A stretch of 32,365 nt of DNA, taken from positions 64,947 to 97,311 of IMG/VR virus record IMGVR_UViG_3300037424_000553; one strand, 5' to 3'. The notes beneath the pieces were generated by a model, which did no database searches, had not been told where the DNA came from, and was given only the letters and a program-made list of their open reading frames with translations. Source of the DNA: a virus. The translations under genes and the position numbers were made by a program. This document shows, one piece after another, positions 1,189 through 17,608 of the stretch; the first letter of the stretch is position 1, and each line of letters starts with the position of its first letter.

Positions 1189-1678
1189 TACGATTCTCCA
1201 GATACCGAGCCCCAGCCATGGCATAGAGTAGGGCATCAGCTTGATGCTGCGTGAGAGTCTTCTGACTGAACCGCTTCTGCATGTCAGCCAGCACATACTC
1301 CTTGTTCGCACGAACAGTGCGACCATTCCTGTTGACACGTGTTTCCTTGAGCGCGTGCCCATACACCCGTTTCTGCGCTGAGCTGGTCGTCACCATCACC
1401 CATGGGATCTCAGGCCTGTTGTAGGCCAGGAACATCTTGAGCCCGCCGATCCACTGCGCGATACGATAGAGAAACGGATGTTCCATCGTCACAGCCTCGA
1501 TGTGATACTTCCGCTCCATGTCAAGCACTAGATTCCCAAGCTGCCGGTAGTGCGCCTGCTCAGTGTCACGCTCGCTGAAGACGATCGCCATCGACTGCAA
1601 CATCTTGTCCTTCTTGGAATCGTATACACCATACCCACCGACGTACTTCCCAGGAACATCGATGCCGAGGATGATCAT
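1181..1678 (-). CDS. RuvC-like Holliday junction resolvase
   Basis: N-terminal IILGID, central VTMEHP, C-terminal HQADAL acidic motifs; ATGA overlap with the upstream gene. Confidence 0.8.
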   Translation of the reverse strand: MIILGIDVPGKYVGGYGVYDSKKDKMLQSMAIVFSERDTEQAHYRQLGNLVLDMERKYHIEAVTMEHPFLYRIAQWIGGLKMFLAYNRPEIPWVMVTTSSAQKRVYGHALKETRVNRNGRTVRANKEYVLADMQKRFSQKTLTQHQADALLYAMAGARYLENRNG

Positions 1679-2616
1679 GCTTCGGTGAAACAATCGTCAA
1701 GAATCGTAGCATCTCGCATAACATGCTCACCACGCCGCTTGATCTTTGCGAAGTGCGTCAAGAGCGAGAGGATACCCTGCCAGTATGGATCCACCATCGG
1801 AAAGTCCGGTGCAGGCATGAGCTGATCGCCCCACAACCTGACGTTCCGCTCGTAGTGCATGATCGCTGACCATTCACCAGACTCAGGCTTGCTCATCCGT
1901 GGCATCGTGTACCCGTAGGACTCTTGATCCAGGATCTCGTTCGCGAGATTCATCTCGTTCTCATAAAAATGCATCGACCCAGTGTTCTGAATGTGCATCC
2001 CGACGTCGAGCCCAACATGAACTGCCACCCATTCGTGTAGCATCGTGAACAAGAAAATATCGTATGGGTAGACCATCACAATGTTCTGACTCCTGAACGT
2101 CGTGATGCAATGCAACCGCCTGTGACGAACGAAGAACTGCATCGAGATCGGACAGGGGATGTCCTTCGAATCGATGTGATCCACCGCCCCACTGAAGATA
2201 GTAACCACTGCCCGTCGTGATGCCGGATCAGCCTTGAGCATGGCAATCACGCTCTCAAGCTGCCTGATGATCCGTGGGCCATAGGCACCGTGAAGTGAAA
2301 CACCATCATCAGAAAACTTGGTGGTGATGGGGTTGTAGTAGAGCAGTGGCTCCACGCTGTCGGTCTCCATGAACTGATACATGAAGTTCCCGAAGGCGAA
2401 CCCAAGGTTGATCGGACGAGCCAGGCTGCTAATGATACGTGAGCGTGGATACTCGAGATCCATCCTCAATCCAAGCAGCTCGATGGTCTTATGCGATGCG
2501 CTCGGCGACGTCTTGTTCAGCAGCGGTTGCACCCACTCCCCATTCTCCATGACATCACGAACTGCGATTTTGTAGAGACCAGTGCTCGTCCCACTTTGTA
2601 GATGATCACTCGACAT
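1675..2616 (-). CDS. Thymidylate synthase-superfamily pyrimidine-modifying enzyme, probably dCMP-specific
   Basis: GAYGPRI, DPASRRAV, catalytic Cys in DIPC, RSQNIVMVYPYD, GSMHFYE; Asp at the position of E. coli ThyA Asn177. Confidence 0.88.
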   Translation of the reverse strand: MSSDHLQSGTSTGLYKIAVRDVMENGEWVQPLLNKTSPSASHKTIELLGLRMDLEYPRSRIISSLARPINLGFAFGNFMYQFMETDSVEPLLYYNPITTKFSDDGVSLHGAYGPRIIRQLESVIAMLKADPASRRAVVTIFSGAVDHIDSKDIPCPISMQFFVRHRRLHCITTFRSQNIVMVYPYDIFLFTMLHEWVAVHVGLDVGMHIQNTGSMHFYENEMNLANEILDQESYGYTMPRMSKPESGEWSAIMHYERNVRLWGDQLMPAPDFPMVDPYWQGILSLLTHFAKIKRRGEHVMRDATILDDCFTEA

Positions 2617-4387
2617 GGATGCTACTCCCCTTCGCTGTCTTGATGACGCGAATGATATGATCCGATGGATAGGCCAAGAGCTTCGGGTTCTGTGAGATAC
2701 AGAAGATACTGCTGAAGTCCTTCCGTTGCGTGCTCAGAAAATCCATGACACGCTCGCACCCTGTCTCATCCAGGTGCTCGAAGATCTCATCATAGAGAGC
2801 CAACGAGAACCGTCCATGATGTAGTTCGCGCGTGAGATCCTGAAGTGCCAGTACGAGGCAGAGATCCACACGCTGTTTCTCGCCTGAGGAGAGATCATCG
2901 TACACCTTGGCCCCGTACTTGTTCTCAACCTCGAACGTAATCTCTTCACGAACATCACCATTCTTCAGGATGCGCTGGGCCGAAAAACGCGGGATGAGCT
3001 CACCAGCCGTGAGGCTCTGGCTGTAGCTGAGGAGCTTCCCTTGAATGAAGCCCTCGTAGTCTCTGAGCATCATCGCCTTCATGCCCTTGTGCCCGAACCC
3101 TTCCACCCAAAAGTCGCGGAGATCAACCTCCGCTGTGAGTGCCGTGATATCACGCTCGTATTTCTCTCGATCACGCTGCAAGACCTCAATCCGCTCCAGC
3201 ATCTCATCCGCAGCCTGGCGCATGAATCGTGCCTCATCAAGCTGACTCACGTGCCGCTCTAGGTCTTGAGTCTCCCTGAGCGTTCGCTGAAGCTTGGCAT
3301 GCACCAGCGCGTAGTCGTCATCAGCACGAGACGTTGGCCAGGTATGTAGCACGTGAGTCAGGGCACTGTTGTAAATCACCAACCGCTGCACTTCATCATA
3401 CAATGGCCTGATCAGTGTCTCGAAATGCTGATCCACCTCGATGCGCTCAACCTTACCAATCGTCCGTCGGCACATCGCGCACCGCCCAGCATTGATGATG
3501 CTATCATGATCACCCTGTATCCCCTCGATCCGCCGCACGATCGTTTTAGCGACCTGATCCATCTTGTTACGCAGGGCAGAGAGCGTGGTCGAATCATCCA
3601 CCAGGACCTGATGTCGCTCACTCGATACCTTCGTCACTTCAAGCTGAACATACAAGGTGTTGATCTCATCATAGAGATCAAGCCGTTCGCGGTGACGATC
3701 AAGCCACTGTCGCATCGCTTCGATTTCGGCCTGCTCCCGCGACTGCTCCAGGTTGTCGCGCTCACCTTGAATCGCCTCGAGCTGACTGTTCACCAAATCC
3801 AACTTGTGTTTGAGATCACTCAGGGCATCGCCAAACTGCCGAGCTTCGATCTCGACAGCCTTACGGCGATCACCAAAGAAAGCAAGATCCAAGAGATCAT
3901 CGAAAATCTGCTTGCGTGGAGCATCAGACATCCCAGCAAACTTTTTCTCTTCGCTGACCCCATACAGGATAGTCTGCACGAACGCTCGATAGGAGAGCCC
4001 GAAGTAGGTGGCGACTTTTTCTCCACTCCCCACCAGCTCATACTTTTTCCCATCGTGCTCGTACAGCTCCCAGCGTCGCTTGGATCCACTCTGCTCCCGT
4101 TCCACAACGTACGGCTTCTTATTCACGGTGAAGTACAGAGCAAGCCACATCTTGTCGGCGTCGTTGTTGATGAGCCGCGCCCCGCTGCTGCCCTTGAGGA
4201 GGCGATCGTACGCCGCGATGGTGATGGCATCGAACAGGGCAGTCTTGCCTGCCCCATTGGATCCAGCCATCCGCGATACTCGATTCTCGCCTACAACGAA
4301 GGTCACGCCTTGCTTCGCGAGTGGGACGCTGAATTCACCCACGAAGGGCATGAAATCCTTCCCATGAATCGATTCGAGTTCGATCAT
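2606..4387 (-). CDS. Rad50/SbcC (T4 gp46-like) ATPase
   Basis: Walker A GSNGAGKT, coiled coils, Zn hook CAMC, signature LSSGEKQR, Walker B LYDE; next to an Mre11-like gene. Confidence 0.92.
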   Translation of the reverse strand: MIELESIHGKDFMPFVGEFSVPLAKQGVTFVVGENRVSRMAGSNGAGKTALFDAITIAAYDRLLKGSSGARLINNDADKMWLALYFTVNKKPYVVEREQSGSKRRWELYEHDGKKYELVGSGEKVATYFGLSYRAFVQTILYGVSEEKKFAGMSDAPRKQIFDDLLDLAFFGDRRKAVEIEARQFGDALSDLKHKLDLVNSQLEAIQGERDNLEQSREQAEIEAMRQWLDRHRERLDLYDEINTLYVQLEVTKVSSERHQVLVDDSTTLSALRNKMDQVAKTIVRRIEGIQGDHDSIINAGRCAMCRRTIGKVERIEVDQHFETLIRPLYDEVQRLVIYNSALTHVLHTWPTSRADDDYALVHAKLQRTLRETQDLERHVSQLDEARFMRQAADEMLERIEVLQRDREKYERDITALTAEVDLRDFWVEGFGHKGMKAMMLRDYEGFIQGKLLSYSQSLTAGELIPRFSAQRILKNGDVREEITFEVENKYGAKVYDDLSSGEKQRVDLCLVLALQDLTRELHHGRFSLALYDEIFEHLDETGCERVMDFLSTQRKDFSSIFCISQNPKLLAYPSDHIIRVIKTAKGSSIHVE

Positions 4388-4479
4388 TTTCCTTTGAGCC
4401 AGGCGCTCTTGCATGCATTACAGAAGTACTCACGTACACGATTCTCGATATCATCAGATCGGCAGTACGGGCAGCTCAT
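4384..4479 (-). CDS. Zinc-ribbon microprotein (31 aa)
   Basis: Manual translation MSCPYCRSDDIENRVREYFCNACKSAWLKGK; two CxxC pairs; its stop overlaps the Rad50 start (ATGA). Confidence 0.65.
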   Translation of the reverse strand: MSCPYCRSDDIENRVREYFCNACKSAWLKGK

Positions 4480-4486
4480 GCGTACT

Positions 4487-5536
4487 CTAAGACTCCAGAA
4501 CTTTGCGCCCATAGTCGACGTAGGCCTCCTTCAGATCATCTGGAACCTGCCGATGCGCCACGTAGCCTTCAACCAGTTCCTTGAACGAGCGTGATCCGGC
4601 AGCCTGGAGCCGAACGATCTGGGCCTGATCCACACGCTCTGGCCTGATGTCGAGGTAGCGTGGGTTACATTGCTCGAGCCGCTTGACGAACGCGCTATCC
4701 AGCGGACGCTTGGAGAAGAGTCGAATCAGATTCCCCTTGAACAGCCCATCGAAGTCCTTCCAGTTGATCGCATCAGGATCGCCAATCGGATCGACGTGCA
4801 TCACTACAAACTTCGGTGACTGTAACTCGAGTGTTGAGACACGCCCATCAGGATCAACGTAGAGTACACCCTTGTCCTGCTCCAGCTCACCAAAGTCTTT
4901 CGCGATGAAGCTGCCTGGATAGTCGACACCGTGAACATGCTGACGCTTGTGGAGATGCCCAGCGAATGCCCGTCCGTAGAGTCCGACACCAAGTGACTTC
5001 TCGGTGAATGTCGACTTGAGCATGTAGTCTGTCGGTCCAACTTCGGCACCATCGAGCTCACCATGAAACATCAATGTCTCGCGTTCCTTCTTCTGCTGTT
5101 TCAAGAATTTCAGCACCCGCTCCTGTTCATACAACCACGGAGCAAAGACGATGTCGTTGACCGTATCAACCTCAGGCTCGATGATGACGTTCGCAAACGC
5201 TTTGAATGACCAGATCGTCACGCTATCGTAGCGATCGTTTTCCCGGTCATGATTCCCGGCGATGAAGAACAAGTTGAGATCCCGGGCATGGTAGAAGTAG
5301 TTGAACACCTGATTCCGCACTTGCTCGTTTATATTCTTCTTCAGATGAAAGACATCACCGAGTACGTAGATCGCCCGGACATCCAGCTCACGGGCATAGC
5401 CAATCATTTCACGGAGTGCGTTACACCAGTCCAGGAGTCGCCCGTTGATCCCACCGGCAGGCTCCCCGCCTTCCTTCCAGTCATGCGCATGGAGATCCGC
5501 GCACACGATGAACCCGCGCTTCTTTAATCCCTTCAT
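4487..5536 (-). CDS. Mre11/SbcD (T4 gp47-like) metallophosphoesterase nuclease
   Basis: ADLH, GDVFH, GNHD, FHG, GHLH motifs. Confidence 0.92.
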   Translation of the reverse strand: MKGLKKRGFIVCADLHAHDWKEGGEPAGGINGRLLDWCNALREMIGYARELDVRAIYVLGDVFHLKKNINEQVRNQVFNYFYHARDLNLFFIAGNHDRENDRYDSVTIWSFKAFANVIIEPEVDTVNDIVFAPWLYEQERVLKFLKQQKKERETLMFHGELDGAEVGPTDYMLKSTFTEKSLGVGLYGRAFAGHLHKRQHVHGVDYPGSFIAKDFGELEQDKGVLYVDPDGRVSTLELQSPKFVVMHVDPIGDPDAINWKDFDGLFKGNLIRLFSKRPLDSAFVKRLEQCNPRYLDIRPERVDQAQIVRLQAAGSRSFKELVEGYVAHRQVPDDLKEAYVDYGRKVLES

Positions 5537-6606
5537 GTCGTGCAGAGTTGATGCATCCGGATCATGAATGCCTGCTCACTCTGATACGTTGGAACAACAC
5601 CACCAAAGTAGAAATCAAGAAAGTTCGCTGGCAGTTTGCCGCTATCAATGAGAACGCGAGGCTGATGATACTCGGCGGCCAATCGACCGATGTTCTCGAC
5701 ATCAGCCCACAGTTCAACAAGATTCCCCGTGTACTCTCCACGCATGTAAGCTTCGGTGACGCGTGCAATGTAAGCCGTTGGATGCGTCCGGCCAGTGATC
5801 TTGAATGATGAAATACCAAACGTCATGTGGTACCGACGAACCCACTGTGGGAGAATGAACCGTGCCCACAACCATTCAATCGGCTTGAGCACGCGCTCAC
5901 GGATACAGTTGCCCATTGGATAATGCCCATACATCTTGACCTCATCCTTGGAGAGATTGAGCGCGTGCAGATCATAACACTGGTTCCGGTCGGCACACTC
6001 ATAGACACAAAATTCGTTGACGATGGTCTCGAGTGTGATCCCAAGTGATCGCGAAAGCATCATGAACTGCGCCAGTTTCTCGCCATCGCGATTGGCAAAA
6101 ACATCCAAGCAGATCTTCTCGATGCTCGGACAGCGCCGCTTGAGCTGCTCAAGCTGCCGCGGATGACGAAGCTGAAGAATTGTCGAAAGTTCAATCGGCA
6201 GCGTCGGGCAGAGATCGTTAACAATCTGCGCGACAAGCGGATGTGCAACCGTGACTCGAATCACGCCGATTGACTTTAGAAATTCTAGGAACTTCACAAT
6301 CGTCGCTTCATGTGCCTTGAGTTCACGTGGATCCACCGCCGACGTATTGATCGTGTAGTTCATGCCAAATCCGTAGGACAACGCTTTGGCAACGAATGCC
6401 GCCAGAAACTCCTCATTATCATCCTTGAGCCGGAACGATGGCCGCGCTGTCCCGATCGGGTTGACACTTGGCAAACTCCCGTACAACTCAGTGATCTGCC
6501 AGGGTTGATCGAGGCTATAGCGGACATTGAGTTCATGGAGCTGATCCAGAAGCTCAAGGTCGAAGTTGCATCCTACTTTATAACTGATCGGATGAAGTGT
6601 CGACAT
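5533..6606 (-). CDS. Peptidase U32-family protein (Fe-S-dependent hydroxylase-type)
   Basis: NYTIN, IELST, Cys cluster IVNEFCVYECADRNQCY, later NC, and FKITGR matching the U32 (L/F)KIxGR motif. Confidence 0.82.
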   Translation of the reverse strand: MSTLHPISYKVGCNFDLELLDQLHELNVRYSLDQPWQITELYGSLPSVNPIGTARPSFRLKDDNEEFLAAFVAKALSYGFGMNYTINTSAVDPRELKAHEATIVKFLEFLKSIGVIRVTVAHPLVAQIVNDLCPTLPIELSTILQLRHPRQLEQLKRRCPSIEKICLDVFANRDGEKLAQFMMLSRSLGITLETIVNEFCVYECADRNQCYDLHALNLSKDEVKMYGHYPMGNCIRERVLKPIEWLWARFILPQWVRRYHMTFGISSFKITGRTHPTAYIARVTEAYMRGEYTGNLVELWADVENIGRLAAEYHQPRVLIDSGKLPANFLDFYFGGVVPTYQSEQAFMIRMHQLCTT

Positions 6607-6618
6607 TGGAATCCTCCT

Positions 6619-7533
6619 TCAGAGGTATTGGCAGACTTCGCCGTACGCTTTCGCCACCACACTGAGTTTGTACTTCGCACAGAAGCTCATGAATCCATCG
6701 TAGTCCGGTGTCGGGAAGTCAAACGTAACTTCGGCGAGCGCATGCTTCTGAATGAACAGGGCAGCATGGAGCGAGACCAGCTTGAAGTTCCGCGCAAGAT
6801 TCCGTTCGGTCTCCGCATCGCCATTGAACGTCATGCTCTGCATATCACTCACTTCACGGAGTTGGTCCAGGCTCGGCAGATGGAGATCCCTGGAGAGCTT
6901 CTTGGCCTTGCTCTCTCCCATTCTGTTCACAGCTGGAGGGACCCCATCCCCAGGATCTCCCCTGAGACACTTGAACGCAAGGTAGTGCCCCGGGGAGTCA
7001 AACCCTGTCAACCTGGAGAAGCCAGTCAGCCCCAGATGAAACTTCTTACGGGGATCGTAGATCCAGACCCCTTCCCGGATCAGTTGCCAGAAATCTCGAT
7101 CTGTGCTCACCACCAGAGCTGGTCTCCAGGTGCTGTTCATCACAGCTAGGGCCACCAAGTCGTCACCCTCAACATCGGTGCACTGTACCTGCGAGACCGC
7201 AAGATTGCCAAGGGCTTCACGGAAAATCGACATCTGATAGTCGATGTCGTTGAACTGCACTGGGCCAAGCTTGCTCGTCCGCACCTTGTACCCGGCCCAC
7301 AACTTTCGCCTGAACGCTGACTTCTCATCCCATGTAATGATTGTCCGCTCAGGTCGATACTTCGCTACGTGTCGGAATAGCTCCGCGAGACTCCCATGAA
7401 TCAGATTGGTTGAGCCAAGCCCTTCAACAGAGAGTTGTCCCTGATAGGCATACCAACTCCGCATCGCCAGGTTTTTCCCGTCGATGATGAGCGTCTTGAT
7501 CTTAGGCAGGACGCTGGCGTCGTCGCTCGACAT
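6619..7533 (-). CDS. 5'-3' exonuclease / flap endonuclease (T4 RNase H, PolI N-terminal-like)
   Basis: LIIDGKN, FRRKLWAGYK, EGDD, STDRDFWQL, LRGDPGDGVP. Confidence 0.92.
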   Translation of the reverse strand: MSSDDASVLPKIKTLIIDGKNLAMRSWYAYQGQLSVEGLGSTNLIHGSLAELFRHVAKYRPERTIITWDEKSAFRRKLWAGYKVRTSKLGPVQFNDIDYQMSIFREALGNLAVSQVQCTDVEGDDLVALAVMNSTWRPALVVSTDRDFWQLIREGVWIYDPRKKFHLGLTGFSRLTGFDSPGHYLAFKCLRGDPGDGVPPAVNRMGESKAKKLSRDLHLPSLDQLREVSDMQSMTFNGDAETERNLARNFKLVSLHAALFIQKHALAEVTFDFPTPDYDGFMSFCAKYKLSVVAKAYGEVCQYL

Positions 7534-7891
7534 CGAAGTATAGAACCTCTTCTACAGTGTAGAACACTGGCTTGCCTTTTGAGTGCGTATACGCCACTTC
7601 CTTGTCCGAGCCTGGTGAGGTTCCCGGCAGCCGGAGCAAGCCGTGGCACTTGTCGATCCAGGCGAAATCGAACGGGAGCCTGATGCGGTAGATCTCTTCA
7701 TCATTCTCGTGCGGGACGATCATGTTCCAGAGTGCATTCACCTGCGGGAGAAATGGAATGATACCGGCCTTCAACAGAACATCAGCAACCTTGCAGGCAT
7801 CATGAATCCCCTTCTCGAGATGTGCCCGCATTGGCCCAGCCACGTAGATGTAGGTCTTCTCATCAACCAAGAGACACGCCGGGCAGGTCAT
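7502..7891 (-). CDS. Nucleoside 2-deoxyribosyltransferase-fold protein (DUF4406/DUF1937-like)
   Basis: YIYVAGPM, PFLPQ, DFAWIDKCHGLLRLPG, SPGSDKEVAY, GKPVF. Confidence 0.75.
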   Translation of the reverse strand: MTCPACLLVDEKTYIYVAGPMRAHLEKGIHDACKVADVLLKAGIIPFLPQVNALWNMIVPHENDEEIYRIRLPFDFAWIDKCHGLLRLPGTSPGSDKEVAYTHSKGKPVFYTVEEVLYFDVERRRQRPA

Positions 7892-8127
7892 ACCAATTCC
7901 TTTCTGAACTTCCCCTTGTTCCGCAGAATCTCGTTGATGCTTTCAGGTTGTAGACGTTTGGTCTGACAGTTCAAACATGTCATCACATTGATATCATCAG
8001 TGATTCGAGACTCTGGTGCCCGACGCCCACAGATCCCACGCCCATCACGCTGCGTGAGATGAATCTGCCCATGAAAACGTGTCTCCCTGATTGACGCCAA
8101 GAGCTTCTTGTACTCAGCCATCTTCAT
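7888..8127 (-). CDS. Hypothetical protein, possible Zn-binding (H..C..CxxC)
   Basis: ATGA overlaps on both sides; IHL...ICG...TCLNC. Confidence 0.65.
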   Translation of the reverse strand: MKMAEYKKLLASIRETRFHGQIHLTQRDGRGICGRRAPESRITDDINVMTCLNCQTKRLQPESINEILRNKGKFRKELV

Positions 8128-9107
8128 AGCACCAACTCCGGGTAGCGATCCACCATCTCATCGATCTCGTGCCAGAAGAACTTCTTGTCCTGGTACTGAA
8201 ACGCCTTACCGTCATCCACGCGCTCGATCTTCTCCTCATCCGCAAGGAGATCGGCATATCCGCTCCAGGGCAAGATCCCATCGTTGAAGTTGACGATGAC
8301 CTCGCAGCGCCTGAATGGCGGTGACAGCTTGTTCTTGATGCAGTCCACGACAACCCGAATCGCCACGGTCTTGCCATTCTCGATGAATCGCTTGTTGTGC
8401 CCCTGATAGAGCACTCGATGCTCGACCCGGATGCGCTGACTCGCATGAAACCCTGGTGCATCCCCGCCTGGAGTGGTCTCTGTCGGCCCAAACATCACAC
8501 CAACCTTGTGACGCACCTGATTCACGATGATGAGCACTGTCCGCTGCTTGCCGACCACACCGGTCATACGACGGAGCCAGGCCCCGATGCTCTTGGCCTT
8601 GGTCATATCCGCCTTGTCCAGTTCCTTCATCTCGTGCTCAGTCGGGGCGGCGGCGAGTGAATCCATCCCGATACCAAGGATGTCCTTCTTGTTTCGCATC
8701 CTGAAATCCTTGGCGAAGTTGAACTGCTGATGGAACGCCGCTTCCACCGTGACCGGCCGACTATAGTACAACCGTTTGGGATCGACACCGATACGGAGGG
8801 CGAACCCCTGACGATCCTCATTGCCATGATCCATCGCATGCTCGATGTCTTGCAGGACGTTCGTCCCACCAAGCTTCGAGATCTGCGCCATGATCTCCAG
8901 CATCAGGAGCGTCTTGCCACCGGAATACGGACCGTAGATCTCAGTCACACGCTCGAGAGCAATCCCACCACCGAGGATCCGATCGATCGCATGGTTCCCG
9001 GTCGAGACGAATTCCACCTTGGGATTGTACTTGAGGTAGTCGCTGTATACCTGCAACTCTTCAACGTCTACCCGCTCCGTCTTCTCCTTCTCAACCTTTT
9101 TTCTCAT
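8124..9107 (-). CDS. RecA/UvsX-like recombinase
   Basis: VSTG..AIDRILGGGI, Walker A GPYSGGKT, DIEHA, DSLAA, IVNQVR, ETTPGG, KNKLSPPFR; start MRKK after GGAGAGG. Confidence 0.95.
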   Translation of the reverse strand: MRKKVEKEKTERVDVEELQVYSDYLKYNPKVEFVSTGNHAIDRILGGGIALERVTEIYGPYSGGKTLLMLEIMAQISKLGGTNVLQDIEHAMDHGNEDRQGFALRIGVDPKRLYYSRPVTVEAAFHQQFNFAKDFRMRNKKDILGIGMDSLAAAPTEHEMKELDKADMTKAKSIGAWLRRMTGVVGKQRTVLIIVNQVRHKVGVMFGPTETTPGGDAPGFHASQRIRVEHRVLYQGHNKRFIENGKTVAIRVVVDCIKNKLSPPFRRCEVIVNFNDGILPWSGYADLLADEEKIERVDDGKAFQYQDKKFFWHEIDEMVDRYPELVL

Positions 9108-9124
9108 GACCTCTCCCTGGAAGG

Positions 9125-9156: not shown

Positions 9157-9161
9157 GCTAA

Positions 9162-9494: not shown

Positions 9495-9499
9495 TATCC

Positions 9500-10828
9500 T
9501 TACCGACGCCGGCTGCTCCGGCTCTCCGGCTCCTTCTCGTCCTTGCCACCCTTCGCACTACCTCTCAGCTTGTCCAGCTCACGCTGGGCCTCATCATCGT
9601 AGTCGTCGTCACCCCGGCCTCTGGCACTCGAGGTCTCTCGATCTCCTCGACCGGTAGCACGGTCGGCCTTGTCGTCATCCCGATCACGACCGCGAGGCCG
9701 ATCATCATCACGACCACGGCCCCGATCATCATCGCCCCGGTCCCGATCTCGACTCGCACGCGCTGGCTCCGGCTCACGATCGCGATCACGGCTCCCACGA
9801 TCCCGGTCATCCCGATCGCGATCATCACGATCCCGGTCATCACGATCGCGGTCTCGACCTCCTCGCGGTTCATCGTGAGCCCGCCCTCGCTCATCCTTGT
9901 CACGGTCACGACTCGAGCGGTCGTCATCCCGATCTCTGTCCCGGCCCTTGGTCTCTCGCTCGTCGCGATCACCACGATCGCGATCACCGCGGCCGCGATC
10001 ACGGTCAGCAGAACGATCATCACGATCATCTCGGTCACGTCCAGACCGAGCGGAGCGCTTCGGTGTGTCATCGGCTTCGCTGTCTGCCCCACGCTCTTTG
10101 GCGATTTCATTGGGGTCCTCCCCATCGATGATCCGTTCCATCTCCTTCGGTGTGAAGATCCGACGCTGGATGTAGTCGTCCAGATCCAGCATCGCCTCGA
10201 CCACACCCTCGGCCACCGGCGACGGATCCCGCTCTGCGAAAATCTCGTACTTGGTATCGTTCATCTTCTTCCCGGTCCGCTTCACGCCGACATCGTAGCC
10301 TTTGTCGGTCTTGAGCAGATCCGGGTACTGCTCGGTGATCAGGGTCATGATGCCCTGATAGATCATCGTGCCGAACGACCACATGATCGGCTTGTCGTCG
10401 TCCTCGTCACGGTCGAGGATCTGCGCCATCCATCGAGGCTGGACGGCCATTTCCTCGGCCATCTTCAGGTCCTTCTCCTTCTTCGAATCCTTCAGCAGGT
10501 CGACGAAGTCGCAGATGGGACAGACCTCATCCTTGGCGACAGACAGCTTCGGGCAGTAAACCGGCGTCTTGCCCGCCTCGCCAAATCCCCAGTGCTGGCC
10601 GACGTACTTGAACCAGGGCTTGCTCTTGTTCAGGGACGGAAGGACGCGAATCCAACTCGTGCCCTCCTTCGGGCCCTTCCAGAACGTGCCCTTCTGACCA
10701 GAGCGACTCTTCGCGTTGGCCAGTTCCTTCTTGTAATACTCCATCATCTTGTCGTCGATGGTCCCCAGGTCGGCGTGAAATGCTTCCTTGCCATCGCGAT
10801 CGCTTCTGTCGCGGTCTCCACGTGCCAT
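9500..10828 (-). CDS. gp32-like single-stranded DNA-binding protein with long Arg/Asp-repeat tail
   Basis: IRVLPS, H...C...CPIC Zn site, GYDVGVKRTG, TKYEI; lies between UvsY-like and RecA-like genes. Confidence 0.85.
   Translation of the reverse strand: MARGDRDRSDRDGKEAFHADLGTIDDKMMEYYKKELANAKSRSGQKGTFWKGPKEGTSWIRVLPSLNKSKPWFKYVGQHWGFGEAGKTPVYCPKLSVAKDEVCPICDFVDLLKDSKKEKDLKMAEEMAVQPRWMAQILDRDEDDDKPIMWSFGTMIYQGIMTLITEQYPDLLKTDKGYDVGVKRTGKKMNDTKYEIFAERDPSPVAEGVVEAMLDLDDYIQRRIFTPKEMERIIDGEDPNEIAKERGADSEADDTPKRSARSGRDRDDRDDRSADRDRGRGDRDRGDRDERETKGRDRDRDDDRSSRDRDKDERGRAHDEPRGGRDRDRDDRDRDDRDRDDRDRGSRDRDREPEPARASRDRDRGDDDRGRGRDDDRPRGRDRDDDKADRATGRGDRETSSARGRGDDDYDDEAQRELDKLRGSAKGGKDEKEPESRSSRRR
9640..10060 (-). 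repeat. Coding low-complexity repeat (RDRDDRD/RGRD units)
   Basis: Degenerate CGTGAT/CGCGAT/CGGGAT repeats that encode the alternating Arg-Asp tail. Confidence 0.85.
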
Positions 10829-10834
10829 GTCGTT

Positions 10835-11377
10835 CTATCTCCTCTCCCTGCGTTGTTGAACTGCATGTCGGTCCTGTTCCCGCTCGACTTCTGCTCTGGC
10901 GATCGTCCCAGCCTTACGGGCCAGGTCGACATCCATCTGCCGCCTGATGTTCGTGGCCAGTGCCACCAGCATATCCCGGCGGTGGGTCATCGCATCCCGC
11001 GCTGACTGGAGGCGATCAACCACTTTCTCCCACTTCAGCTTGTCATCTTCCAACTCCCGATACTTCCTGTTCTGGCTGATACGCGCCGCAACTTCCTTGT
11101 CCGTCGGTTTCTTCTCACCTTCCCCACCATGCTTGTACTCCTCGAAGAGATCTCCCTCGAGGCGATCCATCTTCAGCTTGATGAACGCGATCGCATCCTT
11201 GGCATCGGAGTGCATGGTCGCCCAGAGCGCGAACTTGGCTGGATGATCTGCCAACTCCGTATCGATGTTCCGATCATCGATCGTTACCTCATCGTAGAAG
11301 TTGACCTTCCACGTCTTGCCATTCGGTGTGATAACAGACCACTCGGCGAAGTGATCTCGTAGCTTCAGTGGCGGCAT
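10835..11377 (-). CDS. UvsY-like recombination mediator (coiled coil)
   Basis: IDDRNIDTELADHPAKFALWA start, helical body, KPTDKEVAARI, AMTHRRDMLVAL; position next to SSB and recombinase. Confidence 0.7.
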   Translation of the reverse strand: MPPLKLRDHFAEWSVITPNGKTWKVNFYDEVTIDDRNIDTELADHPAKFALWATMHSDAKDAIAFIKLKMDRLEGDLFEEYKHGGEGEKKPTDKEVAARISQNRKYRELEDDKLKWEKVVDRLQSARDAMTHRRDMLVALATNIRRQMDVDLARKAGTIARAEVEREQDRHAVQQRRERR

Positions 11378-11799
11378 TAGGCTCCACCTCCAATCTGACT
11401 CTCCCTGAGCCGCTGCTGTTCCTGGTTCATCCGCTCCTCAACGATGATACTCTTCCGAATGAACATCTCCTTGAACTTCGACCGGATCTCCGGCATGTAC
11501 ACGGGAATGTTCCAGATGTACTTCTGCGCATCGACGAATTCCTCGATCGCCGCCTCCATGTCGATGGGCCGATCCAGCTTGTGCACCTTGTAGTTGGTCG
11601 CCTTCTCGAGAAATTCGATGAGCTCACCGATCGCGCTGAGCACCATCTTGATCACCATGTCATTGCGTTCGACTGGTGTCAATTCCTCGGGCACTTCCTT
11701 CCCAGGGAACTTCAGCGCAATGACGCGCTCCTGAAACCTCTCTTGATAATCGATGTAATCCTCGAGTGTCTTGAGCGTATTACTCGTCGTTGGTGTCAT
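11377..11799 (-). CDS. All-alpha (dimeric dUTPase / T4 gp56 dCTPase / MazG-type) dNTP pyrophosphatase
   Basis: GELIEFLE...YKVHK...AIEEFVDAQKY metal-binding pattern; start uncertain (11799-11832). Confidence 0.75.
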   Translation of the reverse strand: MTPTTSNTLKTLEDYIDYQERFQERVIALKFPGKEVPEELTPVERNDMVIKMVLSAIGELIEFLEKATNYKVHKLDRPIDMEAAIEEFVDAQKYIWNIPVYMPEIRSKFKEMFIRKSIIVEERMNQEQQRLRESQIGGGA

Positions 11800-14700
11800 C
11801 ATCATCTCCATCCTTCTCGGATTTTTCATCACCCTTGTTGCGCTTGATCGTGTTCTCTCTGAGCTTCGCCCGCTGCTTGTCGGTCAAGCCCGGCACCAAC
11901 AGCTCCCATTCCGTCTCCGGATAGCACGCCACCAAGATCCGATACGACGGTGGGAAGATCAGCTTGCTCCAATAGTAGTCGTGATCGTAGATCCCCTTGA
12001 AGTCGTCGACGTGCACCGCCTGAAGCTTCGGCTTATACCCGGTCACGATATAGGGCACCTTCATGCCCACGTAGAATTCACCACCCGCATCTCTGAACTT
12101 ACGGGCGATCTCAACATGCACGGTCTTGGCCTTGTAACTTTCAATAGCCCGTGCGATACCCTTGGTGATTGTGATCTGCTCGATAGGCAGCTCGCCATTC
12201 AGGACCTTCTCACGCTCGGACATAAGAAAGTCGACGAGATGTTTCCGATTCACCTTCTGCCTGACCACCATCTCGATGATCGTCCGTTGCATGTCCCGGG
12301 CATACTCGATCCCATCCGAGCGCATGCACTCGAGCCCCTTCACCTCGGTGAAGCTCGCCTTCTTCCCCTTGTACATCGTCATCAGCCCTGCGTAGCGCTT
12401 CTTCCGGACAAAGAACATCCGGCTGAAGTAGTTCTCGTATTCCAGCTCGACGAGGAATCGTGACTCTGGAATGCCAAACTTCTCGTAGAGATGTTTCTTC
12501 AGATACTCGTTGCACCCAGCAACGAACGATGCACCCTGATCAGCCGGGAGTTTGATGTACATCGAGTCGGTGTCACCCGCCAGTGGTTCCAATCCTTGGA
12601 GCTTCGTGTAGTCGATCGCCTGCTTGAGGATGTACTGCCCACCAAGCGTGACCGCCTCGGCGACTTTGGGATTGAAGTAGCGACTCTCGACGTTGCCCAT
12701 ATCACCGTAGAAGGAAAGCCCCAGTCGCTTGAACGAATACGCCAGTCTGTAGTAGAGCAGAAACAGATCCGAGCCGACCTCTTGATCGGCCTGGAGCTTC
12801 TGGTAGACCTTCCGTTTCTCACCCGTGTCTTGGAAGATCTCCGGGATGAATCCCTTGCGTGACGTGAGGAACTTTGTCCCTGTCGGCGCGGTCACATACT
12901 CCGAGGGATCGAGCTTCTTCGCCTGCTCATCGGTGATATACGTCTCAGGACTGATGTTCCAGGCGAGCATCACTGATGGATACAGACTCTTGAAGTCGAC
13001 CGCCGCTACATCTTCGAAGATCCCAATCTTAGGATCCAGCACGTACGCCCCTTCGTACATACTTCCTTCAACACCGTACTCCCGCTTCTTGAAGTCGACC
13101 TTCCCACCTTCCTGCATGATGCGAACTTTCTTCGTCGGAAAGTGCATCCCCACCTGCTTGCCACGCTTGAGTAGCAGTGAATCGATTTTCGTGGTGATGT
13201 GATAGTCCCTGGCGAAGCAGTTCCCAATCCGCGAGAAGACCTGGTCAATCTTCGCATAGCCTGAGTGCTGCTCGAGCTGAACAAGCAGATTCGCATCGTA
13301 GCGGTTGTACTCCTCCAGAATGTCTGGCGCCTGCCGGTACAGCTCGAGGAATCGATGGACGTTGAGCCCACGATCCTTACACTTCTCTCGCCAGTCCAGC
13401 TTGCTTGTCTTCAACTGATGCTGCGCGATGGACTGCAATGAGAAGCTCACCATCGCCGATGCCCCACGCTGATGATACCGCTTCCAGGTCCTGAGCAGGT
13501 CAATGGTATGCGTATAGTCCCAGCGCGCTGTGACACCATGCATCCGCATCCGTTGCCGCAGGATCGGGAAGTCGAAGTTGTTCCCGTTCCAGGCATACAT
13601 GATGTCGATCTCTGGCATCTCGCGGGCGAACTTGATGAGCATCATCTTCTCTGAGCGATCGTTCTCCTTCTCGAGCAAGAGGAATCCCTTGCGAGGCTCA
13701 CGACTCTTGTCCTTCCAATGTGTCTCCCAGGCTATCGAGAGAATACGACGTTCGGCAAGATCCCGACGATCGATGAGTGGCTTGGTGTCATCGGTCTCGA
13801 TGTCAATGTACATCTCATCATACGCGCTCTGGATCTTGATGTCGTAGTCTGTGAGAAACCGGCGGGATGGTGTCAGATCCGCTTCGTAGTGCTTGACGCC
13901 CTCCTTCTCGATATCATCTAGCAACTCTCTGAGCAGACGATCCTTGGGATATTTCTTGAGGATGTTGTCGTCCCAGAGTGTGAGGTAACTCTCGAGGAGA
14001 TGCTCCTTCAAGGCCGCGGTACGAATAACCCACCGCTCGGAGTACACCTTGGTCCACTCTGGATTCACTTCATCCGGTTCGAGACGATGAACAGCGCCTT
14101 CCTTCATCCAGTATGCCCAGAACTTCTGCCCAAGCTTGAGTGCGTCTGTCGTCCTGAGATAGAAGTACCAGTTGAAATCGATGCCACCACGAACAACTTC
14201 TTCAGATTTCTGTCCATTGGCATTCGCGTAGACCAGTACAACATTCTTGCCGTCTGACCAAGCTGTGCTGTACTCTCGCTTGTCGTTCCATGGATTCCGG
14301 GAGAACACACCGGACTTGGCTTCCAGGGCGGCGATGACACTCTTGTCCTCTTGATGATGTTCAGTCCTGGTCTGATCGACGTACGTCCCCGTACTCGACT
14401 CCCCGACCAGAACAAGCGCCCGCTGGAGCATGTCCATGACCTTCCGCCGTGTGGTCATGTCCTGCGGGTTGTAGATGAAATGCGCCGGATGATAGAGCGG
14501 AATGATGATGTACCCGTTCTTCTCGATCTCACGCCCAAGCAACTCCTTCATCGGGCTGTTGAGATCCAAGAGGGCCTTCACCGCATAGGCACCCCAGGCA
14601 AGAATCACCCGCGGTTTCACCAGCGCGATTTCTTTCTCCAGCCATTTCTTAGTACAGGTGTCAATCCACTCCTGTTTAGGCTTGGCAATCTTGCCCTTGT

Positions 14701-14941
14701 CGTCGTAACCAGGGAAGCACTTCACAGTATTGGTCACGTACATCTGCGCCCGACTGAAGCCTGCCTCCTCCAACATCTGATCGAACAGAACACCAGACTT
14801 GCCGACCAGCGGGCGCCCCGCCTTGTCCTCACTCGGTCCCGGCGCCTCGGCAACAGACATGATCCGCGCCTTGGACGGTCCTTCGCCAAACACGACCTGC
14901 TTGGACGTCTTATGACAGTCACAGGCTGTGCACCGCATCAT
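11780..14941 (-). CDS. Family B DNA polymerase with N-terminal family-4 uracil-DNA glycosylase-like domain
   Basis: UDG: CTAC, VFGEG, AEAPG, GRPLVG, TNTVKC, YHPA. Exonuclease: DIET, WNGNNFD, YNRYD. Polymerase: DFKSLYPS, KRLGLSFYG, AGDTDS, KKRYAG, KGLE. Confidence 0.95.
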   Translation of the reverse strand: MMRCTACDCHKTSKQVVFGEGPSKARIMSVAEAPGPSEDKAGRPLVGKSGVLFDQMLEEAGFSRAQMYVTNTVKCFPGYDDKGKIAKPKQEWIDTCTKKWLEKEIALVKPRVILAWGAYAVKALLDLNSPMKELLGREIEKNGYIIIPLYHPAHFIYNPQDMTTRRKVMDMLQRALVLVGESSTGTYVDQTRTEHHQEDKSVIAALEAKSGVFSRNPWNDKREYSTAWSDGKNVVLVYANANGQKSEEVVRGGIDFNWYFYLRTTDALKLGQKFWAYWMKEGAVHRLEPDEVNPEWTKVYSERWVIRTAALKEHLLESYLTLWDDNILKKYPKDRLLRELLDDIEKEGVKHYEADLTPSRRFLTDYDIKIQSAYDEMYIDIETDDTKPLIDRRDLAERRILSIAWETHWKDKSREPRKGFLLLEKENDRSEKMMLIKFAREMPEIDIMYAWNGNNFDFPILRQRMRMHGVTARWDYTHTIDLLRTWKRYHQRGASAMVSFSLQSIAQHQLKTSKLDWREKCKDRGLNVHRFLELYRQAPDILEEYNRYDANLLVQLEQHSGYAKIDQVFSRIGNCFARDYHITTKIDSLLLKRGKQVGMHFPTKKVRIMQEGGKVDFKKREYGVEGSMYEGAYVLDPKIGIFEDVAAVDFKSLYPSVMLAWNISPETYITDEQAKKLDPSEYVTAPTGTKFLTSRKGFIPEIFQDTGEKRKVYQKLQADQEVGSDLFLLYYRLAYSFKRLGLSFYGDMGNVESRYFNPKVAEAVTLGGQYILKQAIDYTKLQGLEPLAGDTDSMYIKLPADQGASFVAGCNEYLKKHLYEKFGIPESRFLVELEYENYFSRMFFVRKKRYAGLMTMYKGKKASFTEVKGLECMRSDGIEYARDMQRTIIEMVVRQKVNRKHLVDFLMSEREKVLNGELPIEQITITKGIARAIESYKAKTVHVEIARKFRDAGGEFYVGMKVPYIVTGYKPKLQAVHVDDFKGIYDHDYYWSKLIFPPSYRILVACYPETEWELLVPGLTDKQRAKLRENTIKRNKGDEKSEKDGDDDDTNDE

Positions 14942-15549
14942 GGCACCTTGATTCCTTCTCCGGCATTCAGGCGTCTGAAGACGGCTCTAACAAACGCCCA
15001 CTGATTCTCGTACGACAGTCGCGAGACACCATCGGGATAGAGCAAGGACGCCGGATGATTGACGTACACGCTGATCCATCGATAGGACGCTCGCTCATCA
15101 ACGAGACGCGACTCGTACCACTGACACTTGAATGACTGCGTAAGCCCGATCCGCTTGCCTGCTACATTTCCGAGCGCGACAATGAGTTTCAGGTTGGGCA
15201 ATCTGACGAGCTCACTCTCTAACCAGTCAGCGCACTTGTTGACGTACTCGTCATGTGCCTTGCCCTCGCACTTCATCGCGTTGGTCACATAGAAATCCTC
15301 GAGCCTGAATCCAGCGTCAGTCATGACCGAGCGAAGGATCTCACTGCCCTTGGTCGTCTCTTGAGAATCCCAGAGATGTAACTCAAACGGAATGCGCTTG
15401 GGATTCTGTGGGACCGCATTCCCTGGATTCTGTGCGAGCAGCAGCATCGACGCATCAACATTTCCAATGCCAAGCCCCTTACTCGCCCGGAGCAGGCAAT
15501 GATCGCACTTGCGAATGACGTCGTTAAGTGTAAGTGACTCTAAGACCAT
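14938..15549 (-). CDS. Stand-alone uracil-DNA glycosylase-superfamily protein (Fe-S type)
   Basis: CDHC, LLAQNPG, YVTNAMKC, later C, IVALGNVA, NHPASLLY. Confidence 0.82.
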   Translation of the reverse strand: MVLESLTLNDVIRKCDHCLLRASKGLGIGNVDASMLLLAQNPGNAVPQNPKRIPFELHLWDSQETTKGSEILRSVMTDAGFRLEDFYVTNAMKCEGKAHDEYVNKCADWLESELVRLPNLKLIVALGNVAGKRIGLTQSFKCQWYESRLVDERASYRWISVYVNHPASLLYPDGVSRLSYENQWAFVRAVFRRLNAGEGIKVP

Positions 15550-16063
15550 GATGCCTCATGATCCGCTGGAAATCAATCACCAGCGCATCGATCGAACGTG
15601 TCCCATCGAGGATGTGCGTCTGATACAGATGCGTCGACAGTCCATGCGTCCATCGCTCGTATGCTTGATAAATCTGCGTATGCCGCTCAGTGATGACGCC
15701 CATATCTCCTCGGTCACTCATGCGCCGCTGCGCGACCTCTTGTGGTACACGGAGATAACACACGACAAGTCCGCCCGGCTCCCATGGCCCTCGATAGGCT
15801 GGGATCGGGCGGTTGTAGACTTGCGCGTAGATCGGACCTGTCACGACGGCAAAGCGATCGCAGATATACGTGCTTGCTCGATCGTACATCGATGAGAAGA
15901 GAGCAATGTCGCGTTGTTCCAGTTTGGCGATCTGCTCCCATAGATCTCGATCGAACGGTCCCCAGTTCACAAACTTCATGTTGTCGAACGTGAGGAGTTG
16001 TTTGAGCCGATGGTACAAGGTGGTCTTGCCGCATCCATCGGGTCCTTCGAGAGCGAAGATCAT
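15524..16063 (-). CDS. dNMP kinase (thymidylate-kinase fold)
   Basis: P-loop LEGPDGCGKTT, ICDR motif, lid QRRMSDRG. Confidence 0.85.
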   Translation of the reverse strand: MIFALEGPDGCGKTTLYHRLKQLLTFDNMKFVNWGPFDRDLWEQIAKLEQRDIALFSSMYDRASTYICDRFAVVTGPIYAQVYNRPIPAYRGPWEPGGLVVCYLRVPQEVAQRRMSDRGDMGVITERHTQIYQAYERWTHGLSTHLYQTHILDGTRSIDALVIDFQRIMRHHGLRVTYT

Positions 16064-16287
16064 TTCGGCCCACGTTCCTTGATCATCGCAATCAATTCGT
16101 CACGGATTCCACAGGGCAGGCAGATCTCACGGGGCAGCGAACATTTTGGTTTCTCAAACAACCTGACCAGCAATGCCGCTTCATCCCAGGCTAGCATGAT
16201 GATCGGGACTTCTTTGCCTGTCACATCCTGCATCGTCAGGACATGCGAGCCGGGCTTAAAGTTCATCGTTACACGCTCTGCCATCAC
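16060..16287 (-). CDS. Hypothetical protein
   Basis: 75-aa ORF coupled by overlaps to both neighbours. Confidence 0.6.
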   Translation of the reverse strand: MMAERVTMNFKPGSHVLTMQDVTGKEVPIIMLAWDEAALLVRLFEKPKCSLPREICLPCGIRDELIAMIKERGPK

Positions 16288-16445
16288 ATACTCTCCGTGT
16301 ACAACTCCTTGCCATCAACTGTCCAGCCCTGCAGCTGTAAGTATCTCTCCCATCGCTCTCGCTGCTCCTGAGCATCGCCTTCCGAATACTGACCTTGAAC
16401 TTCCCGACGAATTGTGAGAATGATCGTTGTCTTGGGCATACTCAT
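16284..16445 (-). CDS. Hypothetical protein (53 aa)
   Basis: Manual translation MSMPKTTIILTIRREVQGQYSEGDAQEQRERWERYLQLQGWTVDGKELYTESM; ATGA and GTGA overlaps at its ends. Confidence 0.6.
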   Translation of the reverse strand: MSMPKTTIILTIRREVQGQYSEGDAQEQRERWERYLQLQGWTVDGKELYTESM

Positions 16446-17608
16446 CCCTGTATCAGCTTCAGCAGTGTCGGTTTAATGTTGCGAGCCCAGACTGCCCCGT
16501 ACTCTCCGGCGTTCATGTTCCGTGTCAGATGAATGAGCTGGTCTTTCGTTGCCCGCTCATAGAGTCCGCTCTCGAAGATCCCTTGAATGAATCCGGCCAT
16601 GTACTCGGCGCCCATGTTGGAGAGCAGGCCTGGCCAGTCCTTGTCAACAAGATCTTTGTACCCATCACAATTCAGCAGGATCGGGAAGGCACCACAGGCG
16701 ATCGCTTCACGGATACTCTCGCCACCGAATCCATTATCGCAGAGACCGATGACAGCCTTGCTGCGCCTGAGAAGCCGGGTGTACGCACCCAGATTCTTGT
16801 TGGTACCCTCCTGGACATAGACGTTCTCGATGCCCTCGAGCAACTTGTTCTCGGTGAGATAGCGCGTCTGATCAGGGAAGTAGACCTTCCCTTGCCATCC
16901 AATCTCACGCAGCACCTTGAGTGCTGCAATGAACTCCACGTGATGTGAGTAGTTGGTGCTACTCCCACGCAGGACGAACAGCAGATCGATGTCACGCTCC
17001 GGCGGTGCCCAGTTCTGGGACTGAATGGGATCGTGCAATTGCTGAATATTCCATGCGAATGGCCAGAGCTGAACACCATCGATTGCCTTCTCGAAGTCTC
17101 TTTGCTTCGCAAGATGATCGCGAATCCGTTGCCGCATACTCGGACTCAGGCATGTGATGACATCCGCCTTCTCATAGTTCATGTCGAACAACGGACTCAT
17201 CCATGGCCATGCTGTCTCCGGTGAGAGATTGTGATGCTGAATCACCTTCATCTTCGGATAGGCACCTTTGATCGCCCACCCGATGAGCTCATGCGAGGTA
17301 AAGAGGATATCGACATCCTTGAACAGCGTCGGCCAGCGATGCGGATACCACTCGAGCCGCTGCGCCATATTCTCTGCCGGGATCGCTACTTCATGGATGT
17401 CAAGCATATCACCCGTCCCATCCCACGCTGGGAGCGTCTGGCAATCCTTGAGTTGCGGCACCAGCAGGCGAATCTTCCAGCCCAGCTCCTCATGGATCTT
17501 GTGCGCCATGAACATGATGTGCTTGGTGGCAACACAGGAATGCAGCAGGAATTTCCCAGTCTGCTTGTCCTGCTGCGAGTAGAAGGGCAGGAGTGCGATT
17601 CGTGTCAT
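16442..17608 (-). CDS. GT-B fold glycosyltransferase, probably DNA-modifying
   Basis: ADVITCLSPSMR, DLLFVLR, YTRLLRRSKAVI, FGGESIREAIACGAFPIL (GT-B donor-binding motif); embedded in the replication module. Confidence 0.8.
   Translation of the reverse strand: MTRIALLPFYSQQDKQTGKFLLHSCVATKHIMFMAHKIHEELGWKIRLLVPQLKDCQTLPAWDGTGDMLDIHEVAIPAENMAQRLEWYPHRWPTLFKDVDILFTSHELIGWAIKGAYPKMKVIQHHNLSPETAWPWMSPLFDMNYEKADVITCLSPSMRQRIRDHLAKQRDFEKAIDGVQLWPFAWNIQQLHDPIQSQNWAPPERDIDLLFVLRGSSTNYSHHVEFIAALKVLREIGWQGKVYFPDQTRYLTENKLLEGIENVYVQEGTNKNLGAYTRLLRRSKAVIGLCDNGFGGESIREAIACGAFPILLNCDGYKDLVDKDWPGLLSNMGAEYMAGFIQGIFESGLYERATKDQLIHLTRNMNAGEYGAVWARNIKPTLLKLIQG

Follow-up and report, generated by a model that had tools for sequence, protein, structure and literature searches.

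Replacement of DNA cytosine by glycosylated 5-hydroxycytosine has been described for the phages RB69 (gp45-gp55), DLP3 (gp76-gp83), HY126 (Afh enzymes), Serratia LC53 and Rhizobium RL38J1 (gp214-216) (Lee et al. NAR 2026, PMC13326640). In this pathway, gp48 of RB69 and gp80 of DLP3, both homologues of thymidylate synthase (TS), turn dCMP into 5-hydroxy-dCMP; 5-hydroxydeoxycytidine (5hodC) is made by them in E. coli without a U32-family protein, the characterised 5-hydroxy-dCMP synthases bind flavin and take their oxygen from 18O2, and the 5hodC peak becomes clear once a phage deoxynucleoside monophosphate (dNMP) kinase is co-supplied (PMC13326640). Here, we analysed a stretch of 32,365 nucleotides (the window), which comprises positions 64947-97311, i.e., the last third, of the 97,311-bp IMG/VR virus record IMGVR_UViG_3300037424_000553. 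Five of its genes, together with a dCTP deaminase (DCD) gene at genome positions 60734-61168 just outside the window, probably represent a divergent and scattered form of the pathway that replaces DNA cytosine with glycosylated 5-hydroxycytosine. The first-pass annotation had placed these five open reading frames (ORFs) on one strand, interleaved with the replisome, and indeed all of them are present on the minus strand; only for the pyrophosphatase, given there as 11377-11799, does the ORF stand while its start can be 11832 (GTG, 151 aa) instead of 11799. The five genes are:

1675-2616, minus strand: TS-superfamily enzyme, predicted 5-hydroxy-dCMP synthase type, 313 aa (PF00303, 74 bits)
5533-6606, minus strand: divergent U32-family protein, probable 4Fe-4S enzyme and proposed O2-independent C5 hydroxylase, 357 aa (PF01136)
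11377-11832, minus strand: all-alpha NTP pyrophosphohydrolase, candidate dCTPase/dUTPase, 151 aa (phrog_173, 4.5e-6)
15524-16063, minus strand: Tmk-like nucleotide kinase, candidate 5-hydroxy-dCMP kinase, 179 aa (phrog_761 'thymidylate kinase', 3.7e-17)
16442-17608, minus strand: GT4-like GT-B glycosyltransferase (GT), candidate DNA 5-hydroxycytosine glycosyltransferase, 388 aa (weak Glyco_transf_4 match)

The TS homologue found its best PDB match in the CMP hydroxymethylase MilA (7e-26, versus 1e-13 for ThyA). Aligned to E. coli ThyA, it retains the catalytic C146 as well as R166 and S167, and displays the substitutions L143D, C168Q, D169N and N177D. Its PYD aligns with PFN of ThyA and thus places at ThyA position 177 an Asp, which is cytosine-specific, while it lacks Asp169, the residue retained in T4 gp42 and MilA for the methylene-tetrahydrofolate cofactor. 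L143D and N177D are common to hydroxymethylases too; D169N is diagnostic of 5-hydroxy-dCMP synthases, and nine more D169N enzymes, including gp216 of RL38J1, all gave 5hodC (PMC13326640). The core motifs of the enzymes in question read:

TS homologue of this phage: RSQNIVMVYPYD
RL38J1 gp216: RSQNMVSVWPYD (near-identical to that of this phage)
RB69 gp48 and Acinetobacter phage Maestro: RSQNCAVVMQLD
T4 gp42: RSNDVVFGFRND

We aligned 120 database homologues with RB69 gp48 and T4 gp42 (122 sequences). RSQN..D was present in the query and in 20 of 20 members of its metagenomic clade (42-100% identity, SH-aLRT 98), and RSND..D, as in T4 gp42, in 97 of the 122 sequences. Judged by the published signature residues, the enzyme is therefore predicted to be of the 5-hydroxy-dCMP synthase type. 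Three further homologues (P0022, P0025 and P0038) carry RSQS..D with Ser at ThyA position 169, and one of them, P0025, branches beside the RSQN clade; the product of these enzymes cannot be predicted from the published D169N rule. A ThyX was not found in the 97-kb genome.

Among the partner genes, the kinase shares phrog_761 with RB69 gp45 and has a weak dTMP-kinase match in NCBIfam. The pyrophosphatase had been taken for an enzyme of the gp56 kind, a weak assignment that draws on phrog_173, the PHROG of T4 gp56. A direct comparison with gp56 gave an hhalign probability of 53% over 40 columns and no significant BLASTP match, and Pfam dUTPase_2 was matched with an E value of 0.023 only. The ExxE and ExxD pairs are conserved, and orthologues in three relatives carry precomputed PF08761 dUTPase_2 matches. 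For the GT, an AlphaFold2 (AF2) model (pLDDT 87) displayed the GT-B fold, and Foldseek ranked 3c4q (MshA, a retaining GT4 enzyme; 1.3e-11) first, followed by sucrose-phosphate synthase (SPS), BshA and PimA, with 6kih matched at 1.8e-9. MshA is also the top match of the base-proximal transferases RB69 gp46:47 and DLP3 gp79, which have the same structural neighbours (PMC13326640 Table 1). The GT has no PHROG match and no BLAST similarity to the T4 beta-glucosyltransferase; its homologues number 12, all but one of them from metagenome assemblies alone.

In this phage the kinase gene lies 379 bp downstream of the GT gene. An unrelated 78-kb PolA phage (L020:9138-13100) carries a radical-SAM gene, GT, TS, MazG and kinase within 4 kb, the GT directly preceding a TS that reads RSLN..D (D169N, N177D) but has Arg at position 143; identities to the proteins of this phage are 29% for the GT, 30% for the TS and 33% for the kinase. 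In a 65-kb relative (L013, L014, L019), primase, GT, kinase, uracil-DNA glycosylase (UDG) and a UDG fused to a family-B DNA polymerase (UDG-PolB) follow each other in the order seen here, with the kinase directly after the GT (L019). Due to the L020 cluster and the L019 gene order, the scattered genes of this phage can be matched to a module that is compact elsewhere. In the L020 cluster, a 145-aa ORF also stands between TS and MazG.

We consider the proposed pathway likely because of the validated diagnostic residue, the shared families and the two independent gene-cluster contexts. According to the homologies, the all-alpha pyrophosphatase and DCD would drain dCTP, and the TS homologue, its conserved Cys attacking C6 of dCMP, would hydroxylate C5 alone, as the characterised enzymes do with flavin and O2. 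The Tmk-like kinase would then phosphorylate 5-hydroxy-dCMP, with a host NDP kinase completing the triphosphate, the UDG-fused polymerase would incorporate the modified dCTP, and the MshA-like GT-B enzyme would add to the 5-OH on DNA a sugar supplied by a route other than the RB69-type arabinose genes. The U32 protein may act as a second, autonomous Fe-S hydroxylase, dependent on prephenate, that supplies 5-hydroxy pyrimidine at low O2.

With the described glycosyl-5-hydroxycytosine systems (PMC13326640), this locus has in common the D169N/N177D TS, a Tmk-like kinase from their PHROG, a GT-B enzyme with MshA-like neighbours, tentatively the gp56-type pyrophosphatase family, the adjacency of GT and kinase, and a U32 protein of phrog_5757 as in RB69 and LC53. 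A cytosine pathway ending in glycosylated 5-hydroxycytosine, as proposed in the first-pass annotation, fits the Asp177/Asn169 TS, the shared PHROGs and the MshA-like GT, and the comparable gene set of RB69-like phages to which it pointed does exist: kinase and U32 protein share PHROGs with RB69 gp45 and gp50, and the GT has the same neighbours. The system had also been treated as largely new, which it is not, having been described in 2025-2026. The pathway itself is already published and this phage is probably a further, arabinose-gene-free instance of it. He et al. (in Nat Chem Biol, 2026) and Mahler et al. (in Cell Host Microbe, 2025) are reportedly also concerned with this pathway.

What this locus adds is a new phage lineage, a new transferase family, a gene set lacking the arabinose genes, a U32 gene whose presence varies within the lineage, and U32 contexts without a TS in view. 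In contrast to the known carriers, the carrier here is an uncultured 97-kb lineage with a GC content of 57% and a PolB about 25% identical to that of any cultured phage, and its pathway genes, rather than being clustered, are spread over the replisome operon. Compared with RB69, the TS clade is separate from gp48 in the tree, the GT comes from a different sequence family and homologues of the arabinose genes gp51-55 are missing. A chorismate mutase and a gp1-type dNMP kinase are likewise absent, and a different sugar toolkit is located elsewhere in the genome. The T4 5-hydroxymethylcytosine pathway (gp56, gp42, gp1 and the alpha- and beta-glucosyltransferases) follows the same logic, i.e., depletion of dCTP, modification of dCMP by a TS fold, re-phosphorylation, incorporation and glycosylation, and the replisome of this phage is T4-like, with a pyrophosphatase weakly assigned to the PHROG of gp56. 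Unlike in T4, position 169 is Asn and not Asp, which predicts a hydroxyl instead of a hydroxymethyl group, and the kinase is Tmk-like and not gp1-like. DNA hypermodification with 5-hydroxycytosine would reach past the cultured Straboviridae and Pootjesviridae into an uncultured UDG-PolB lineage with an unrelated transferase family.

As to the sugar, RB69 gp51, gp52, gp53 and gp55 gave no blastp match in the 97-kb genome; since RL38J1 lacks these arabinose genes too, they define the arabinose subtype only. The earlier statement that the window contains no sugar-nucleotide synthesis genes holds for the window. A scan of the rest of the contig for NDP-sugar genes, suggested at the same time, was positive for an RmlD-like reductase, a GT2 and a methyltransferase-domain protein and negative for RB69-type arabinose genes. 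This glycan toolkit is located at 46.9-57.6 kb of the genome (L003:8878-19557) and includes the RmlD-like reductase (578 aa), which has an additional domain at its C terminus, the GT2, a 501-aa protein with the methyltransferase domain and more GT-like ORFs. The toolkit could serve to elongate the sugar on DNA or, alternatively, to glycosylate virions. In the relatives L010 and L011, an RmlD-like gene follows the TS block, and L011 also has methyltransferases and a GT2.

The U32 protein matches PF01136 with 40.2 bits (cut-off 22.4) and belongs to phrog_5757 (5e-60), which also contains RB69 gp50. The two proteins share 37% identity, and gp50 itself reaches 18.4 bits with the UbiU model (cut-off 440). 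Its AF2 model (pLDDT 95) revealed a TIM barrel with the U32 protein 5d88 as the top PDB fold match (TM score 0.71 by target), a relationship seen by fold search alone, as phmmer against PDB sequences gave no match. In characterised U32 enzymes, four Cys ligate a 4Fe-4S cluster (Pelosi et al.). All 72 homologues of the phage protein retain C200, C210 and C234, and 93% of them retain C166; these four Cys are candidate ligands of such a cluster. Where orthologues are present, they are 69-72% identical to it, so that the protein is as conserved as PolB, as compared with 51% identity for the TS and 44-48% for Rad50 and Mre11. The Pfam domain and the 5d88 fold are shared with RlhA (23S rRNA ho5C2501), TrhP (tRNA ho5U34) and UbiU/UbiV, and the four conserved Cys, though spaced differently, recall those of these enzymes. 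According to PMC10990095, U32 enzymes use prephenate as oxygen donor, RlhA and TrhP acting on rRNA and tRNA and UbiU/V on quinone precursors. As with RlhA, a C5-OH on cytosine is the change proposed here, and related phages link U32 to a chorismate mutase, which forms prephenate; unlike these enzymes, the phage protein is a single domain of 357 aa with a deoxynucleotide or DNA as the proposed substrate.

In cultured phages, U32 was found in 222 records, which come from phages of facultative anaerobes, those listed being Enterobacterales phages or Shewanella phage Thanatos. A TS like RB69 gp48 occurs in 374 records, including 57 of Acinetobacter and 20 of Rhizobium phages, two names that are not among the ten commonest in the U32 list. 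Searches of whole records detected no U32 in Acinetobacter phage Maestro, Rhizobium phage RL38J1 and T4, while it is present in LC53 and RB69. In Serratia phage LC53 (L021:5494-7699), a chorismate mutase (Pfam CM_2, 1.7e-11) is encoded between U32 and the 5-hydroxy-dCMP synthase gene, its ORF overlapping both neighbours. Homologues of it were found by tblastn in 54 phage records, all of Enterobacterales or Shewanella phages; in every listed row the gene adjoins TS and/or U32, and the homologues are confined to U32-bearing phages or host genera. RB69 gp49, considered as a further chorismate mutase, was rejected, having neither a Pfam match nor similarity to the LC53 enzyme. The link therefore holds for the 54 records and not for RB69 itself, where gp49 is unrecognisable as such an enzyme. 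In the open literature we found nothing on U32 or chorismate mutase in this context, He 2026, Mahler 2025 and the supplements of PMC13326640 being outside this scope.

Within the lineage of this phage, the U32 gene is variable. In one relative (L009) it occupies the position it has here, a slot flanked by the exonuclease and Mre11 genes. In L011 this slot is filled by an unrelated 251-aa ORF (L011:6488-7243) with no Pfam or PHROG match, which was considered as a degraded U32 and rejected, and in L013 the slot is empty. The co-occurrence of U32 with TS and GT in relatives, which had been put forward as a test, was accordingly seen in L009 (TS, U32) and not in the sister phages L011 and L013/L019, which retain the same D169N TS, GT and kinase without U32.

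Distant U32 homologues (29-42% identity) are carried by PolA phages without a TS in the stretches read, among them L015-L017 and one further contig. L015:10001-15015, L016:10001-16052 and L017:10001-16071, all from siphophage-like PolA contigs, share a conserved block of U32, a DUF6378/DUF1599 'nucleotide modification associated' protein, UDG, a 305-316-aa ORF, DUF4326 (in L016 and L017) and PolA. The match of the 305-316-aa ORF to S-adenosylmethionine (SAM) methyltransferases is clear in L015, marginal in L017 and absent in L016. The further contig has U32, DUF6378/DUF1599 and UDG, followed by unannotated ORFs in place of methyltransferase and DUF4326. No TS homologue was present in the 19-21 kb read of L015-L017. 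The block is a candidate module for hydroxylation and subsequent methylation of a DNA base, and to our knowledge it matches no described system. In a 42-kb PolA phage (L024:3126-11033; also L025), PolA, UDG, GT, pyrophosphatase, a Tmk-dCMP-deaminase fusion, U32 and a NUDIX gene are found together. The GT is a remote member of the GT family of this phage (hhalign 88%), the pyrophosphatase is homologous to the one described above (6e-22), and the 29 of 42 kb read contain no TS homologue. U32 appears to stand where the TS would be. Based on L020 and L024, the set of GT, pyrophosphatase and kinase thus comes in three arrangements, with TS only (L020), with U32 only (L024, in the stretch read) and with both (this phage).

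Considering the family chemistry, the chorismate mutase linkage, the host distribution, the apparent substitution of TS by U32 and the presence of U32 without arabinose genes, we propose a separate U32 route. That the protein is an autonomous, O2-independent C5 hydroxylase of pyrimidine deoxynucleotides or DNA, and not a subunit of the TS step, has in our estimation a little less than an even chance. It is likewise only tentatively that we suggest U32, here and in RB69-like phages, to back up the O2- and flavin-dependent TS and so to provide 5-hydroxycytosine DNA under anoxia. With the same reserve, U32 might be the sole hydroxylase in L024 and L015-L017, judged by the stretches read, where it might, again somewhat speculatively, seed undescribed bases such as glycosylated or O-methylated 5-hydroxypyrimidines. 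If true, no earlier U32 enzyme would have had DNA precursors as its substrates, and gut and sediment phages would have a way to maintain their DNA armour when oxygen is absent, a point of relevance to restriction/CRISPR evasion and to phage therapy in anaerobic niches. With U32 occurring here without arabinose genes, sister phages lacking it and other phages carrying it without a TS in the stretches read, the idea of an oxygen-free hydroxylase is directly testable.

Alternatively, U32 might not act on DNA bases at all, being a sugar or heterocycle reductase, an enzyme related to UDP-arabinose, or a hydroxylase of host tRNA or rRNA that tunes translation during infection. RB69 gp50 is labelled 'sugar or heterocycle reductase' (PMC13326640 Table 1), a BASEL phage record annotates the protein as a putative UDP-arabinose biosynthesis enzyme, and the RNA and quinone-precursor substrates of RlhA, TrhP and UbiU/V given in PMC10990095, as well as the dispensability of U32 in the sister phages, would agree with such a role. 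However, the presence of U32 in a genome without homologues of the arabinose genes argues against the sugar-related labels and shows that U32 is not tied to arabinose synthesis, and the arabinosylating Acinetobacter phages in turn lack U32. Moreover, the neighbours of U32 in every context seen are Tmk-like kinases, dCMP deaminase, dUTPase_2, UDG and polymerases, and the chorismate mutase suggests prephenate-dependent hydroxylation over reduction. A role outside DNA therefore seems rather unlikely to us, and the autonomous C5 hydroxylase is preferred.

Several observations weigh against the reading given here, both for the pathway and for U32. For this phage, the probable pathway to glycosylated 5-hydroxycytosine is deduced from homology and gene context. 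The TS homologue is just 25-33% identical to verified enzymes, the assignment of the pyrophosphatase and its candidate specificity are weak, no T4 gp1-type dNMP kinase, the kind actually assayed in PMC13326640, was found in the genome, and the GT, a candidate as to both acceptor and donor, showed no detected sequence similarity to the GTs of RB69, Maestro or RL38J1. Regarding U32, the Cys spacing is C-x33-C-x9-C-x23-C versus the CX6CX15CX3-4C recurrent in most U32 families, the protein fits no cellular subfamily in NCBIfam (TrhP 14.9 bits, cut-off 534), and it is dispensable, being absent from two sister phages. Neither a chorismate mutase nor a DAHP synthase was found in the genome. Finally, a quick TS tree nests the RSQN clade among D169-type homologues and apart from RB69 gp48, which leaves room for convergence of the D169N signature and makes the predicted product an extrapolation. 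In this tree, RB69 gp48 and T4 gp42 sit on very long, unreliable branches, and because of their length the tree leaves undecided whether D169N had one origin or two, and we claim no independent origin.

The tree also bears on the possibility that the TS homologue works as a T4 gp42- or MilA-type dCMP hydroxymethylase and that the DNA contains glycosylated 5-hydroxymethylcytosine. The homologues next nearest to the RSQN clade, among which it is nested, display RSND like T4 gp42, the best match among solved structures is MilA, and L143D and N177D are found in hydroxymethylases as well. Nevertheless, we regard this as improbable: the Asp169 of T4 gp42 and MilA is Asn here and in the whole clade (20/20), and 5hodC was the product of all D169N enzymes assayed, RL38J1 gp216 and its near-identical motif among them (PMC13326640). 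The 5-hydroxy-dCMP synthase assignment is thus retained.

The TS homologue and U32 had initially been thought to hydroxylate C5 jointly and without oxygen, the TS activating C5 and U32 delivering the oxygen as one O2-independent unit. The two genes do lie in one operon, both here, where they are 3 kb apart, and in L009, RB69-like phages have TS, chorismate mutase and U32 adjacent with overlapping ORFs, and O2-independent hydroxylation is the chemistry of the U32 family. A prediction of the TS-U32 complex scored 0.00, which counts neither for nor against binding. But RB69 gp48 and DLP3 gp80 need no U32 to make 5hodC in E. coli and draw on 18O2 (PMC13326640), the D169N TS, GT and kinase persist without U32 in L011 and L013/L019, Maestro and RL38J1 have no U32, and the U32 clade also occurs in phages without a TS nearby. 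As the published TS enzymes are self-sufficient and the presence of U32 is patchy, a joint step is unsupported and in our view very improbable. That the five genes are ordinary salvage genes (ThyA, Tmk, dUTPase) plus a GT for virion proteins or the host envelope, as the public annotations (thymidylate synthase, thymidylate kinase) and a separate glycan cluster, located by the packaging genes and possibly involved in glycosylating virions, could suggest, is hardly credible, given that the Asp at position 177 excludes a dUMP-specific TS, that homologues of GT, TS and kinase form one tight cluster in L020, and that the GT is found inside the replisome operon beside the kinase in two lineages.

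The 97,311-bp record is linear, has a GC content of 57%, is 92% complete according to CheckV and carries nearly all of its genes on the minus strand. Megablast of 20 kb against cultured phages revealed no DNA-level match, the best match of the PolB in a cultured phage reaches about 25% identity, and single-protein scans of IMG/VR found one close relative per scan. A T4-like operon for replication and recombination on the minus strand encloses all five pathway ORFs; it comprises, in coordinate order, a RuvC-like resolvase, the TS homologue, Rad50 and Mre11, U32, a 5'-3' exonuclease, a nucleoside-deoxyribosyltransferase-like ORF, UvsX, gp32, a UvsY-like protein, the all-alpha pyrophosphatase, UDG-PolB, a second UDG, the Tmk-like kinase, the GT, a primase, a DnaB-type helicase and UvsW. 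The two UDG genes are:

11780-14941, minus strand: UDG-PolB, family-B DNA polymerase with an N-terminal UDG domain (PF03167 8.5e-31, PF00136 2e-47)
14938-15549, minus strand: stand-alone family-4-like UDG homologue between kinase and polymerase (PF03167 3.8e-12)

The stand-alone homologue also matches TIGR00758 (UDG_fam4) with 1.2e-10, under the cut-off of the model. The UDG-PolB fusion is kept in all relatives examined (L009, L011, L013/L019), as is the stand-alone UDG gene, and UDG genes also accompany the U32 clade in phages without a TS in view. It is conceivable that these UDGs police deaminated 5-hydroxycytosine, i.e., 5-hydroxyuracil, a hypothetical role. Between the exonuclease and UvsX, a 129-aa ORF (7502-7891, minus strand) gave weak matches to DUF7768, DUF4406 and nucleoside 2-deoxyribosyltransferase. 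Its product may process dNMPs or nucleosides in connection with the modified pool, and L011 has a similar gene.

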